64,000 nucleotides of DNA from Escherichia coli (lineage in GTDB: Bacteria > Pseudomonadota > Gammaproteobacteria > Enterobacterales > Enterobacteriaceae): the NCBI RefSeq assembly GCF_030384885.1, contig NZ_CP128613.1; one strand, written 5' to 3'. The notes under the pieces were generated by a model. It was not told the DNA's origin and made no database searches. It worked only from the letters and a program-made list of their open reading frames with translations. Position 1 is the stretch's first letter. Each line of letters begins with the position of its first letter. This document shows, in pieces, positions 54,339-59,100 of the stretch. Made by a program: the position numbers and the translations under genes.

Positions 54339-54426
54339 ACGACAATTTGGTGAGGTGTCCGAGTGGCTGAAGGAGCACGCCTGGAAAGTGTGTATACGGC
54401 AACGTATCGGGGGTTCGAATCCCCCC
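54339..54426 (+). tRNA. serX: tRNA-Ser (anticodon GGA)
   Basis: GGTGAGGTGTCCGAGTGGCTGAAGGAGCACGCCTGGAAAGTGTGTATACGGCAACGTATCGGGGGTTCGAATCCCCCCCTCACCGCCA: acceptor stem, long variable arm, GGTTCGAATCC T-loop and encoded CCA. Confidence 0.92.
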
Positions 54427-54527
54427 CTCACCGCCATCTTTAAAGAAGAGCTCGTACGAAAGTACGGGCTTTTTTTTCGTATATTGCACACACCGGGGGG
54501 ATGAGAAGCCCCGACAGGGGTTCGACA
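54408..54527 (+). repeat. direct repeat copy 1 (tRNA 3' end + terminator + about 70 bp)
   Basis: AATCCCCCCCTCACCGCCATCTTTAAAGAAGAGCTCGTACGAAAGTACGGGCTTTTTTTTCGTATATTGCACACACCGGGGGGATGAGAAGCCCCGACAGGGGTTCGACAACTGGCGACA. Confidence 0.9.
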
Positions 54528-54588
54528 ACTGGCGACAGCCAGTTGGACAGACCGTGAACGCAGTGAGCGGGCTGCCCGCAGGGCGAGC

Positions 54589-54707
54589 GAAGCGAGTCAA
54601 TCCCCCCCTCACCGCCATCTTTAAAGAAGAGCTCGTACGAAGGTACGGGCTTTTTTTTCGTATATTGCACACACCGGGGGATGAAAAGCCCCGACCGGGG
54701 TTCGACA
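54589..54707 (+). repeat. direct repeat copy 2 (about 96% identical to copy 1, 61-bp spacer between copies)
   Basis: Same sequence as copy 1 with four differences (GAAAGT to GAAGGT, one G fewer in the G-run, GAGAAG to GAAAAG, GACAGG to GACCGG). Confidence 0.9.
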
Positions 54708-54720
54708 ACTGGCGACAAAC

Positions 54721-56088
54721 TCAATCATCATCCTTGCAGTTGATAAGAATTTCTGCCTCTTTTACAACTATCTTATTACGTCCGGTTTCTTTCGCTTCAT
54801 ATAGTGCATTATCAGCCATTCGATAGATTTCATTCGGATTTAACGCACTTCCCTGAGTCACCACAGCGCCAATGCTAATCGTCACTTTTTGCGGTATGGC
54901 GTATTCAGGATTATCGCCTGTCAAACGCTCTACATTTGCCCTTATCCTTTCGGCTAAAACTTTCGCGCTTTCAGTATCGGTCTCCGTCAGCAAGACGCCA
55001 AACTCTTCGCCGCCAACGCGTGCTAAAAGGTCATTTGGTCGTATGCTTTTCCCAATGATGCTCACCACTGTTTTTATCACCTGATCGCCAACCGGATGCC
55101 CCCACGTATCGTTAACTTTTTTAAAGTGATCGATATCCATAATCATGACACAATAAGACGTTTTTTGGGCTGATGCTGATTGAGCCTTCAGTTCATTGAA
55201 AAAATAATTCCTGTTAAATATATTAGTTAATGGATCGCGATGGGCAATGTTCTTTGTTACTCGTAGCGCACTGAAAATATGGCACATAAATATTACCATA
55301 ACGGTTAATTTACTGACTACTTCAATAGTGCGGCTAATATACCAAGTGGACACACTATACCTGCTCATAAATAACAGAGAGATATTATACAGCACGGCAC
55401 AGAAAGCAATCACTGATACTCCATTCCAGATATCACAGCGTAAACCATTAAAGTATAGATTAACCAAAAGCAAGATTAACCACATGAAAATCATTATGGT
55501 AACATATGAGGTTTTCCAGACTACCTGACCATTTTCATTTGTTAACTCGGCAATATGTAAACTGTAGTCATCATAATGACTACTTAGCATGTGAGCAACT
55601 GCCGCCCCCCCAAAAATAAAAAATAGACTTATACACAATGTCATTTTTTTGGAAAAAAAACAGCGTTTCTTATTGTTTTCACTAACTTTATTCACCAGCG
55701 CTAGCAATATTAACATGCACAAACTCATCTGACGAAACAAATAATAAATTGCAATATCATTTTGTACAACGCTGCTTATCAAATGCCCCTCAATAAATTG
55801 CTGAATGATAATGACAGTTTTAACAAAGTAAATCAAACAACTCAGAAACGCTAAACTAAGTATGCAGTTTGAAAATTGGACACGATCATAAATGAAATAC
55901 AATTGCATGAAAATAAATGCAACGGTATCGATAAAAAATAAAGCAATCATAACCATTAGATAGGTTGATCGTGGAACAACCTCCTCAACGGTTGGCTGAT
56001 TAAACCAACTATTTACCAAAACGAATGCAAGCCCAAACAATAAGCTCACCAATACAGTACTACTAATTCCCAAATAGTCTTTTTCCAT
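54721..56088 (-). CDS. dgcT: diguanylate cyclase DgcT (YcdT), membrane MASE-type sensor + GGDEF
   Basis: ORF 54721..56178 (485 aa) with multi-TM N-terminal region and C-terminal GGEEF motif (RVGGEEFGVLL); start placed at internal MEKDYL. Confidence 0.85.
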   Translation of the reverse strand: MEKDYLGISSTVLVSLLFGLAFVLVNSWFNQPTVEEVVPRSTYLMVMIALFFIDTVAFIFMQLYFIYDRVQFSNCILSLAFLSCLIYFVKTVIIIQQFIEGHLISSVVQNDIAIYYLFRQMSLCMLILLALVNKVSENNKKRCFFSKKMTLCISLFFIFGGAAVAHMLSSHYDDYSLHIAELTNENGQVVWKTSYVTIMIFMWLILLLVNLYFNGLRCDIWNGVSVIAFCAVLYNISLLFMSRYSVSTWYISRTIEVVSKLTVMVIFMCHIFSALRVTKNIAHRDPLTNIFNRNYFFNELKAQSASAQKTSYCVMIMDIDHFKKVNDTWGHPVGDQVIKTVVSIIGKSIRPNDLLARVGGEEFGVLLTETDTESAKVLAERIRANVERLTGDNPEYAIPQKVTISIGAVVTQGSALNPNEIYRMADNALYEAKETGRNKIVVKEAEILINCKDDD

Positions 56089-56439
56089 AAAGCTACACCA
56101 ATCTGTAGGTTGTAGATCCCTTTCTGTCACTAATAGATATAAGAACTGTACTGTTGTCAATATAAAAATCCACCACAAACAATACCAATGATGATAGTTG
56201 CAGACCGCAATTATTATTACCTTAGTGCTTTATACATTCTTCGCGACAAGACAGGCTTGCAAATACATATAAATGGTTATAAGGAAATCCTTATAAAACA
56301 TTAATTCATAGATATATTAGGAATAACAATTGAATCCGTGAGTACAGTAACGCTGCATTTCATCAGGACTTTCGAAAAATCCGATATCATGCATCGGAAT
56401 TTACTGATTTAATTATTTTAATCCTAATTTATTTTGAAA

Positions 56440-56676
56440 AAGGCATTGGGATTTATGCCGTATTCCTGAAGTTCCTCATCATTGGAATGGATTTTCGGGC
56501 GAGAAAAGGATTTTATATGGATACTCTACTCATCATTTCTTCTTCTCATCATCAACAATTCACGTCTCTCTTCCGCGTTTAATAACGGATTATGATGTGC
56601 AAAAAAATATCTTTCGTTTCAGTTACCTGTAATTAGATACAGAGAGAGATTTTGGCAATACATGGAGTAATACAGG
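56440..56676 (+). promoter_or_regulatory. pgaA: pgaA long 5' leader (CsrA-regulated in K-12); 5' boundary approximate
   Basis: About 590-bp gap between divergent dgcT and pgaA; several GGA motifs including ACAGGATGT directly over the pgaA start codon. Confidence 0.55.
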
Positions 56677-59100
56677 ATGTATTCAAGTAGCAGAAAAAGG
56701 TGCCCGAAAACCAAATGGGCTTTGAAAATTCTTACTGCCGCATTTTTAGCAGCGAGTCCCGCGGCGAAGAGTGCTGTTAATAATGCCTATGATGCATTGA
56801 TTATCGAAGCTCGCAAGGGAAATACTCAGCCAGCTTTGTTATGGTTTGCACAAAAATCAGCACTCAGTAATAACCAAATTGCTGACTGGTTACAGATTGC
56901 CTTATGGGCCGGGCAAGATAAACAGGTTATTACCGTTTACAACCGCTACCGTCATCAGCAATTACCAGCGCGTGGTTATGCAGCTGTCGCCGTCGCTTAT
57001 CGTAACCTGCAACAATGGCAAAACTCGCTTACACTGTGGCAAAAGGCACTCTCTCTGGAGTCGCAAAATAAGGATTATCAACGGGGACAAATTTTAACCC
57101 TGGCAGATGCGGGTCACTATGATTCTGCGCTGGTTAAACTTAAGCAGCTTAACTCTGGAGCACCGGACAAAGCTAATTTACTCGCAGAAGCCTATATCTA
57201 TAAACTGGCGGGGCGGCATGAGGATGAATTACGGGCGATGACAGGGTCATTACCTGAAAATGCCTTAACGCAACAATATCCCACAGAATACGTGCAGGCA
57301 TTACGGAATAATCAACTTGCTGCCGCGATTGACGATGCCAATTTAACGCCAGATATTTGCGCTGATATTCATGCCGAACTGGTCAGACTGTCGTTTATGC
57401 CTACGCGCAGTGAAAGTGAACGTTATGCCATTGCCGATCGCGCCCTCGCCCAATACGCTGCATTAGAAATTCTGTGGCATGATAACCCTGACCGCACTGC
57501 CCAGTACCAGCGTATTCAGGTTGATCATCTTGGCGCGTTATTAACTCGCGATCGTTATAAAGACGTTATTTCTCACTATCAGCGTTTAAAAAAGACGGGG
57601 CAAATTATTCCGCCCTGGGCGCAATATTGGGTTGCGTCGGCTTATCTCAAAGAACATCAGCCAAAAAAAGCACAGTCAATAATGACAGAGCTCTTTTATC
57701 ACAAGGAGACCATTGCCCCGGATTTATCCGATGAAGAACTTGCGGATCTCTTTTACAGCCACCTGGAGAGTGAAAATTATCCCGGCGCGCTAACTGTCAC
57801 CCAACATACCATTAATACTTCGCCGCCTTTCCTTCGGTTAATGGGCACGCCTACGAGCATCCCGAATGATACCTGGTTACAGGGGCATTCGTTTCTCTCA
57901 ACCGTAGCAAAATATAGTAATGATCTTCCTCAGGCTGAAATGACAGCCAGAGAGCTTGCTTATAACGCACCAGGAAATCAGGGACTGCGCATTGATTACG
58001 CGAGTGTGTTACAAGCCCGCGGTTGGCCTCGTGCGGCAGAAAATGAATTAAAAAAAGCAGAAGTGATCGAGCCACGTAATATTAATCTGGAGGTTGAACA
58101 AGCCTGGACAGCATTAACGTTACAAGAATGGCAGCAGACAGCGGTCTTAACGCACGATATTGTCGAACGTGAACCGCAAGATCCCGGCGTTGTACGTTTA
58201 AAACGTGCGGTTGATGTACATAATCTTGCAGAGCTTCGTATCGCTGGTTCAACAGGAATTGATGCCGAAGGTCCGGATAGTGGCAAACATGATGTCGACT
58301 TAACCACCATCGTTTATTCACCACCGCTGAATGATAACTGGCGCGGTTTTGCTGGATTCGGTTATGCCGATGGACAATTTAGCGAAGGAAAAGGGATTAT
58401 TCGCGACTGGCTTGCGGGTGTTGAGTGGCGGTCACGTAATATCTGGCTTGAGGCGGAGTACACCGAACGCTTTTTCAATCATGAGCATAAACCCGGCGCG
58501 CGCCTGTCTGGCTGGTATGATTTTAATGATAACTGGCGTATTGGTTCGCAACTGGAACGCCTCTCTCACCGCGTTCCATTACGGGCAATGAAAAATGGTG
58601 TTACAGGCAACAGTGCACAGGCTTATGTTCGCTGGTATCAAAATGAGCGGCGTAAGTACGGTGTCTCTTGGGCTTTCACTGATTTTTCTGACAGTAATCA
58701 GCGTCATGAAGTCTCACTTGAGGGTCAGGAACGCATCTGGTCTTCACCATATTTGATTGTCGATATCCTCCCCAATCTGTATTACGAACAAAATACAGAA
58801 CACGACACCCCATACTACAACCCTATAAAAATGTTCGATATTGTTCCGGCATTTGAGGCAAGTCATTTGTTATGGCGAAGCTATGAAAATAGCTGGGAGC
58901 AAATCTTCAGCGCAGGTGTTGGTGCCTCCTGGCAAAAACATTATGGCACGGATGTCGTCACCCAACTCGGCTACGGGCAACGCATTAGCTGGAATGACGT
59001 GATTGATGCTGGCGCAACGCTACGCTGGGAAAAACGTCCTTATGACGGTGACAGAGAACACAACTTATACGTTGAATTCGATATGACATTCAGATTTTAA
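56677..59100 (+). CDS. pgaA: poly-beta-1,6-N-acetylglucosamine export porin PgaA
   Basis: 807-aa ORF with signal peptide, TPR-like N-terminal half and beta-barrel C-terminus. Confidence 0.95.
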   Translation: MYSSSRKRCPKTKWALKILTAAFLAASPAAKSAVNNAYDALIIEARKGNTQPALLWFAQKSALSNNQIADWLQIALWAGQDKQVITVYNRYRHQQLPARGYAAVAVAYRNLQQWQNSLTLWQKALSLESQNKDYQRGQILTLADAGHYDSALVKLKQLNSGAPDKANLLAEAYIYKLAGRHEDELRAMTGSLPENALTQQYPTEYVQALRNNQLAAAIDDANLTPDICADIHAELVRLSFMPTRSESERYAIADRALAQYAALEILWHDNPDRTAQYQRIQVDHLGALLTRDRYKDVISHYQRLKKTGQIIPPWAQYWVASAYLKEHQPKKAQSIMTELFYHKETIAPDLSDEELADLFYSHLESENYPGALTVTQHTINTSPPFLRLMGTPTSIPNDTWLQGHSFLSTVAKYSNDLPQAEMTARELAYNAPGNQGLRIDYASVLQARGWPRAAENELKKAEVIEPRNINLEVEQAWTALTLQEWQQTAVLTHDIVEREPQDPGVVRLKRAVDVHNLAELRIAGSTGIDAEGPDSGKHDVDLTTIVYSPPLNDNWRGFAGFGYADGQFSEGKGIIRDWLAGVEWRSRNIWLEAEYTERFFNHEHKPGARLSGWYDFNDNWRIGSQLERLSHRVPLRAMKNGVTGNSAQAYVRWYQNERRKYGVSWAFTDFSDSNQRHEVSLEGQERIWSSPYLIVDILPNLYYEQNTEHDTPYYNPIKMFDIVPAFEASHLLWRSYENSWEQIFSAGVGASWQKHYGTDVVTQLGYGQRISWNDVIDAGATLRWEKRPYDGDREHNLYVEFDMTFRF

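Follow-up and report, generated by a model that had tools for sequence, protein, structure and literature searches.

Where translation of the diguanylate cyclase gene dgcT (ycdT) begins is the question raised by the stretch of Escherichia coli DNA analysed here, 64,000 nucleotides (nt) of contig NZ_CP128613.1 (assembly GCF_030384885.1), hereafter referred to as the window. On the minus strand, a stop-free frame of 485 codons runs from 56178 down to a TGA at 54723..54721, and its translation opens with MWWIFILTTVQFLYLLVTERDLQPTDWCSF before reaching MEKDYL, encoded from the ATG at 56088..56086. The initial annotation assigned this frame to DgcT, placed an ATG at 56176..56178, 30 codons upstream of the MEKDYL start, and proposed that its use would add a transmembrane helix to the sensor domain; it also remarked that the C-terminus looks different from that of K-12. 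The 30 additional open codons (56178 to 56089) and the translation given for them were borne out, but the codon at 56176..56178, read directly on the minus strand, is TTG. We consider it very probable that the ATG at 56088 is the start of the gene and that the 90 nt upstream of it are regulatory, not coding. DgcT would then be a protein of 455 residues with eight hydrophobic segments, and the upstream 90 nt would comprise the 5′ leader and core promoter of the gene, the absence of stop codons from this frame being fortuitous.

The locus itself is the ordinary, already known dgcT of E. coli. From the MEKDYL ATG, the coding sequence (CDS) occupies 54721..56088 on the minus strand (455 codons plus stop). 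The product carries an N-terminal MASE4 membrane sensor domain (Pfam PF17158, E = 4e-65, profile positions 5-238 of 239) and a C-terminal GGDEF domain (Pfam PF00990, E = 3.7e-50) in which both the RxxD and the GG(D/E)EF motifs are intact (...SIRPNDLLARVGGEEFGV...; RPND five residues ahead of GGEEF), and from these domains and motifs it is predicted to be a MASE4-GGDEF diguanylate cyclase. The gene is divergent from pgaABCD, and on its other side lie an RtT-like repeat, tRNA-Ser(GGA) and ghrA, a synteny read from a near-identical record and from the K-12 annotation. The window matches the orthologous position between pgaABCD and the serX/ghrA side, and a distant orthologue, L041, likewise adjoins pgaA. 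Both the domains and the divergent pgaABCD neighbour agree with the gene call made in the initial annotation. The near-identical record that served as annotation reference is E. coli 2013C-4282 (NZ_CP027579.1), which differs from the window by 16 single-nucleotide polymorphisms and one indel over 64 kb. There the Prokaryotic Genome Annotation Pipeline (PGAP) annotates precisely the CDS 54721..56088, and the equivalent MEKDYL start is found in 11 other inspected E. coli genomes (12 of 12 in total), with dgcT annotated as a frameshifted pseudogene in two of the 11.

Compared with K-12 DgcT (YcdT; 452 amino acids, aa), which is repressed by CsrA, the window has the same synteny (the gene lies between pgaA and tRNA-Ser/ghrA), domain architecture, MEKDYL start and GGEEF and RxxD motifs, and the leaders are identical from GAAAGGGA to the ATG. 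In contrast, identity over the CDS is only 90.4% at the nucleotide and 90.6% at the amino acid level, the window has neither the IS3/ymdE/ycdU island nor the EAL-gene island downstream of dgcT, and its promoter region is one G shorter, which brings the extra TTG into frame. Other E. coli MASE4-GGDEF proteins with the same family architecture are DgcX and CdgI (YeaI) (PMC10459773), paralogues at other loci that are likened to DgcT here by description. Database hits at 36-37% identity to the window DgcT are probably of this DgcX/CdgI kind.

Candidate starts of the upstream frame

Upstream of the MEKDYL start, the frame is closed by a TAA at 56230..56232 (minus strand), and back to that codon there is no in-frame ATG; the only in-frame codons of a start type are a TTG at -30, a TTG at -24 and a GTG at -14, counted in codons. 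The presence of such codons can be judged against the other genes of the window. For the 66 genes annotated in the matching record over the 64-kb window, we walked upstream in frame from each annotated start and found an ATG, GTG or TTG at least 30 codons away in five (yceB, dinI, csgC, dgcT and phoH), so that a 30-codon extension of dgcT is an unexceptional, one-in-thirteen occurrence. At least 30 open codons precede the annotated start in nine of the 66.

The 30-codon extension of the mechanical open reading frame (56089..56178, minus strand), which we read as untranslated 5′ leader and promoter DNA, consists of 37% T and 66% A+T, a composition that favours Phe, Ile, Leu and Tyr codons. When translated, it has a hydrophobic stretch of 16 residues (residues 2-17 of the 485-aa form), and its best 19-residue Kyte-Doolittle mean is 1.47. 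This value is below the cut-off of 1.6 used here and below all eight hydrophobic segments found by the same scan in the canonical 455-aa form, where peak means range from 1.87 to 2.34. Across the six frames of the T-rich pgaA-dgcT intergenic region, 5.6% of stop-free 19-residue stretches reach 1.47 or more, and the hydrophobic look of the translated extension would be a product of T-rich DNA. The Pfam match to MASE4 opens at residue 71 of the 485-aa form and thus leaves the extension outside the domain, while the eight segments of the 455-aa model are consistent with a cytoplasmic GGDEF domain.

Shine-Dalgarno (SD) potential was scored as the best duplex energy between the 3′ end of 16S rRNA and positions -21..-4 of each candidate start, with reference medians of -6.0 kcal/mol for 65 annotated starts in the window and -2.4 kcal/mol for random positions. 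The MEKDYL ATG scores -5.3 kcal/mol, with GGUG 7 nt upstream. This SD-like site (GGTG at 56096..56099, minus strand; nucleotides -11..-8) was recognized by duplex energy and conservation: it is present in every E. coli-type allele with energies of -5.3 to -8.2 kcal/mol, and a divergent allele, L003, has GGAG at the position equivalent to GGUG (-6.7 kcal/mol). The duplex at the -30 TTG (56178) is at background level (-2.9 kcal/mol), and that at the -14 GTG is +0.8 kcal/mol. A ribosome-binding site, taken as a mark of a genuine extension, was not found at either of these two codons. The initial annotation had advised looking for an SD before each candidate ATG, and had named a strong SD only before the internal ATG, together with unconserved upstream codons, as the outcome that would speak against the longer protein. 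This is essentially what we observed: the internal ATG follows an SD-like site whereas the -30 TTG does not, and protein-level conservation is missing upstream, although the internal site (GGUG, -5.3 kcal/mol) is moderate and not strong and the TTG at -24 is preceded by one just as good.

How the -30 TTG came into frame is apparent from an alignment of the upstream DNA of K-12, O157, Nissle, UPEC-774U, EC21Z-151, PE164, Z0117EC0055 and A42 with L003 (a divergent Escherichia allele of 77% aa identity), L042 (an allele of 86% identity from assemblies labelled Salmonella) and L041 (a syntenic metagenomic orthologue of 64% identity). Every aligned allele but the window haplotype has one extra G 3 nt past the TTG, which places it out of frame. 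The exact 55-nt window haplotype occurs in 322 of 4149 genomes and the form with the G in ~3800; of the E. coli genomes with the locus, about 92% have the TTG out of frame. A 1-nt deletion in the window lineage might accordingly be thought to have made a longer gene of 485 aa with a ninth transmembrane helix, starting from the TTG at 56178. Its frame is indeed open, and in frame throughout a haplotype of about 322 genomes, and residues 2-17 are hydrophobic. We nevertheless regard this reading as highly improbable, as it relies on a weak start codon without an SD, in a minority haplotype whose first six codons are differently framed in all other alleles, and on a hydrophobic run of only 16 residues that stays below the hydropathy threshold. 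A -10-like TATATT lies downstream of this TTG, PGAP does not use the codon in the near-identical NZ_CP027579.1, and database searches returned no 485-aa protein for the window allele.

Homologous proteins place the start at or near MEKDYL. Queried with the 485-aa form, the database returned NCBI proteins of 455 or 452 aa and none of 485 aa, the longest forms of the window allele being 479 aa. Homologues of 41-77% identity begin with MMKDY, MKKEH, MKREY, MKKEY or MEKHK, or with MNN in the Enterobacter type, and their starts align within a few residues of MEKDY, right before the first hydrophobic segment; an extra N-terminal segment is absent from all of the homologues in this identity range that were compared. 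The comparison with DgcT orthologues, also advised in the initial annotation, therefore gives starts at the Met equivalent to that of MEKDY, with the upstream codons not kept as protein. A search of genome contigs of other species for further orthologues gave one close relative (L003), and the remaining matches were unrelated GGDEF domains.

Conservation of the upstream DNA and the TTG at -24

The reading frame of the extension is not conserved in the orthologues. In the L003-type allele, found in at least 23 complete E. coli genomes, the leader carries an insertion of 1 nt, and a TAG lies 14 codons before the ATG with no intervening start codon, so the L003 protein can start only at MMKDY. 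L041 has an in-frame TGA at -23, within a conserved ATTGACA block, and another sequence, L044, has an in-frame stop six codons upstream together with an AAGGA SD. The block concerned, tATATTGACA in the window (56155..56164, minus strand), holds the -24 TTG (56160..56158) as well as a -35-like TTGACA and a -10-like TATATT, and its core ATATTGAC is invariant among the E. coli alleles, L042, L003 and L041. Since cATATTGACA is kept in three reading-frame contexts, it bears the signature of a DNA or RNA element and not of codons.

The same conclusion is suggested by the substitutions among nine E. coli alleles, for which we compared the first 438 codons of the CDS with the 72 nt upstream. In the CDS, 179 sites vary, divided 39:28:112 between the three codon positions, and pairwise ratios of nonsynonymous to synonymous divergence (pN/pS) are 0.16-0.19. 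In the 72 nt upstream, 6 sites vary, two at each codon position (2:2:2); 5 of them would be nonsynonymous (V/M/I, T/I, E/K, D/G) and 1 synonymous. The extension thus has neither the third-position bias nor the synonymous excess of a protein, a suggestive contrast from few sites, and the pattern suggests that these 72 nt are conserved as DNA and evolve like non-coding sequence. With a TTG that lacks an SD, an unconserved frame, noncoding-like substitutions and homologues starting at the MEKDY equivalent, the proposal that the upstream start is used and adds a transmembrane helix finds no support.

What is conserved upstream of dgcT resembles regulatory sequence. A promoter scan returned TTGGTA-18-TATATT, ending at 56159. 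Downstream of the TTGACA, a hexamer (T/C)ATTA(A/G/T) stands at a constant 19 nt in all lineages, including L041 with its differing spacer sequence; in L003 this spacing was counted by hand, as a pattern match had caught an earlier TATTAT. The window version, TATTAG (56130..56135, minus strand), is a putative -10 element that overlaps the -14 GTG and is replaced by TATTAA or CATTAT in other lineages. We propose TTGACA-N19-TATTAA as a promoter candidate. Pairing the TTGACA with TATATC as -35 and -10 was considered and rejected, the 13-nt spacing being unconserved (12 nt in L041).

Further downstream is AAGGGA (56117..56122, minus strand; nucleotides -34..-29), a candidate CsrA site that contains GGA and was picked out by its conservation, reading AAAGGGA in all E. 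coli-type alleles and L003 and AAATGGA in L041. The succession of cATATTGACA, N19, (T/C)ATTA(A/G/T) and AAA(G/T)GGA keeps a fixed spacing down to L041 (56117..56164 in the window), and the 41 nt before the ATG hardly vary between E. coli alleles that diverge by as much as 11% in their coding regions. Within these 41 nt of leader are AAGGGA, GGUG (-11..-8) and an AUGGA that overlaps the start codon. CsrA directly targets the ycdT mRNA, in which one GGA site is known, close to the SD (PMC4066749; PMC6028588), and CsrA binding has been reported for ycdT of K-12 (PMC4066749; PMC5389547). The conserved blocks may be a promoter plus CsrA elements, and the nucleotide conservation upstream would reflect cATATTGACA, the hexamer at 19 nt, AAGGGA, GGUG and AUGGA as regulatory elements. 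Judged by the promoter-like matches and the conserved blocks, the transcript would begin no further upstream than the -24 TTG. We also considered a hairpin between AAGGGA and the ATG, by which a strong distal SD might be drawn near the start codon, and rejected it, as the fold is like that of shuffled sequence (z = 0.22) and has no compensatory changes in 5 sequences. A search against Rfam gave no family in the leader, the only matches, tRNA-Ser and an RtT repeat scoring below threshold, lying downstream of the gene.

Several observations weigh against a start at the ATG at 56088, most of them concerning the TTG at -24, which lies inside ATATTGACA. All common E. coli alleles and L042 have this codon in frame, and each has a frame open over 42 codons or more. 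The window allele carries GGUGG, an SD-like sequence, 8 nt before the TTG; its duplex energy, -6.0 kcal/mol, equals the median of annotated genes and is as good as that of the ATG. Calls of the Prodigal type from this TTG are routine, with non-NCBI gene callers giving proteins of 479 aa (P0001-P0005) or 476 aa (P0011, representing a cluster of 5709 members), and for the L042 allele one NCBI record (P0012) has a form of 487 aa that begins at an ATG at -32. The 19-nt spacer of the putative promoter is unusually long, the contrast between nonsynonymous and synonymous changes comes from 6 sites (p about 0.08 by Fisher's test, the CDS counts being approximate), and we infer the exclusion of the TTG codons from the mRNA only from promoter-like matches and conservation. 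In the literature searched, we found no usable records of a transcription start site (TSS), of ribosome initiation or of N-terminal peptides for dgcT. The sole TSS given by Kim et al. 2012, with 2 reads, lies 691 nt upstream and within pgaA, and the names dgcT and ycdT were not matched in the supplements of Cappable-seq, SMRT-Cappable-seq and TRAINSPOTTER, nor were approximate coordinates in those of the two Cappable-seq papers.

If DgcT of common E. coli were made at least partly from the -24 TTG, the resulting isoform would carry the additional tail MTTVQFLYLL(V/I)(T/I)ERDLQPTDWCSF, for a total of 479 aa (476 in K-12-type alleles). We consider this improbable. The SD-like sequence of this TTG sits in hypervariable DNA, the most variable part of the region, and its energy ranges from -3.1 to -11.7 kcal/mol across alleles. 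In the 24 codons that follow, 5 of 6 substitutions alter the amino acid and there is no third-position bias, and both L003-type alleles (frame break, TAG at -14) and L041 (TGA in the TTGACA block) still keep the DNA motif. The tail is missing from distant homologues, its hydrophobic run is only about 12 residues, and the promoter-like sites and conserved blocks put the transcription start at or downstream of the codon. Slightly less probable still is a second, longer DgcT isoform from this TTG that would carry a short hydrophobic-then-acidic tail on MASE4, with cATATTGACA serving both as a promoter-like element and, on a longer transcript, as the coding start. The preferred start at the ATG at 56088 matters mainly for annotation hygiene. 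Longest-frame readings and Prodigal-type calls of 476 or 479 aa in thousands of assemblies can give a membrane sensor a false hydrophobic N-terminus, and this would mislead predictions of MASE4 topology.

Allele classes and the C-terminal tail

The dgcT gene of the window differs from the common E. coli gene far more than its surroundings do. Its coding region (54721..56060) has 89-91% nucleotide identity to the common alleles, with a synonymous divergence (pS) of about 0.3 and a pN/pS of 0.17, whereas any two common alleles share 96-99.8%. At 95% identity or more, the window allele is found in 36 of 4251 genomes, and on these identities it is classed as a separate, rare and deeply divergent allele. 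The flanks match ordinary E. coli at 97-100% identity overall: 99-100% for the intergenic DNA upstream (56063..56463) against UPEC-774U, which shares the upstream haplotype of the window, and 97-99% for the tRNA-Ser/ghrA side. A divergent gene between ordinary flanks suggests that recombination has replaced the allele, with breakpoints at the two ends of the gene. Phylogroup-B2-like strains (Nissle 1917, ST131, NU14 and UPEC-774U) have coding sequences that are 89-90% identical to that of the window and 96-99% identical to that of K-12.

There are at least three or four deep classes of dgcT alleles, namely the common, window, L003 and L042 types, and these have apparently been exchanged by recombination with breakpoints at the gene ends. 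The L003 type (L003 3001..4368; 77% aa identity) has matches of at least 99% in 23 complete E. coli genomes and of 90-95% in 16 more. The L042 type (L042 3097..4464; 86% aa identity) comes from assemblies labelled Salmonella enterica, yet it adjoins pgaAB. Separately from these classes, three E. coli DgcT proteins (P0015, P0017 and P0018; 459, 466 and 473 aa) have one to three extra tandem copies of LFFVFCF in the fifth hydrophobic segment, an expansion that corresponds to an in-frame 21-nt repeat in the MASE4 domain (equivalent to about 55500..55560 in the window).

The remark in the initial annotation that the C-terminus departs from that of K-12 was correct, and the departure is a common natural variant. 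The window DgcT ends in ...KEAEILINCKDDD and K-12 DgcT in ...VVVRDVVNFCESP (RDVVNFCESP), for total lengths of 455 and 452 aa; given more fully, the ends are ...NKIVVKEAEILINCKDDD in the window and ...NKVVVRDVVNFCESP in K-12. The variable tail of the window with its stop codon occupies 54721..54762 (minus strand), and homology to K-12/O157-type alleles ends just upstream. The K-12 match ends at 54764 of the window (query position 1917), and homology to the K-12, O157 and PE164 alleles breaks off directly past ...NK(I/V)VV, where they have unrelated island sequence. In O157 and PE164, this island has an EAL-domain gene 98 nt past the K-12-type dgcT stop (L032 3429..3821; L034 3429..3821), which in O157 we take to be pdeT (vmpA). 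In K-12, it comprises IS3, the ymdE pseudogene and ycdU (L002 5990..8544). The K-12-type C-terminus is set by the left edge of the island, which falls among the final ~13 codons of dgcT.

Alleles with the tail KEAEILIN(C/R)KDD(D/E) abut the serX region directly or, in Nissle, a serX-associated integrase island. The B2-like alleles of Nissle 1917, ST131, NU14 and UPEC-774U, at 455 aa, end in KEAEILINRKDDE, the same tail type as in the window, and share with it the direct adjacency to the serX region. Because the KDD[DE] tail is present in 1493 complete genomes and the outgroup-like L003 also ends in ...NWKDDD, we read this tail as ancestral and that of K-12 as derived. In K-12/O157-type alleles, the last ~13 codons would have been replaced at the edge of the inserted island, and the window would retain the ancestral tail beside the RtT repeat and tRNA-Ser. 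The C-terminal difference is thus a known kind of natural dimorphism tied to the downstream island, and the two tail types of dgcT, like its deep allele classes, are mildly useful for work on cyclic di-GMP signalling and the regulation of poly-N-acetylglucosamine (PGA) biofilms.

Neighbouring features

On the upstream side of dgcT, pgaA is an intact open reading frame of 807 aa in the window (56677..59100, plus strand). In 2013C-4282, a G to A change at 56717 turns Trp14 into a stop, and PGAP hence starts pgaA at a TTG at 56722 (792 aa). Beyond the dgcT stop, within 54349..54720, tRNA-Ser(GGA) occupies 54349..54436 on the plus strand, and an RtT-like repeat lies at 54481..54617, with an Rfam score of 41.7 bits, just below the gathering score of 45; the record annotation lists an RtT small RNA (sRNA). 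The repeat opens with a copy of the tRNA-Ser 3′ end, such that ...gtcgccagttgtcgaacccc.gtcggggctt.tcatc is present twice. At this site, K-12 has two RtT copies and UPEC-774U none.

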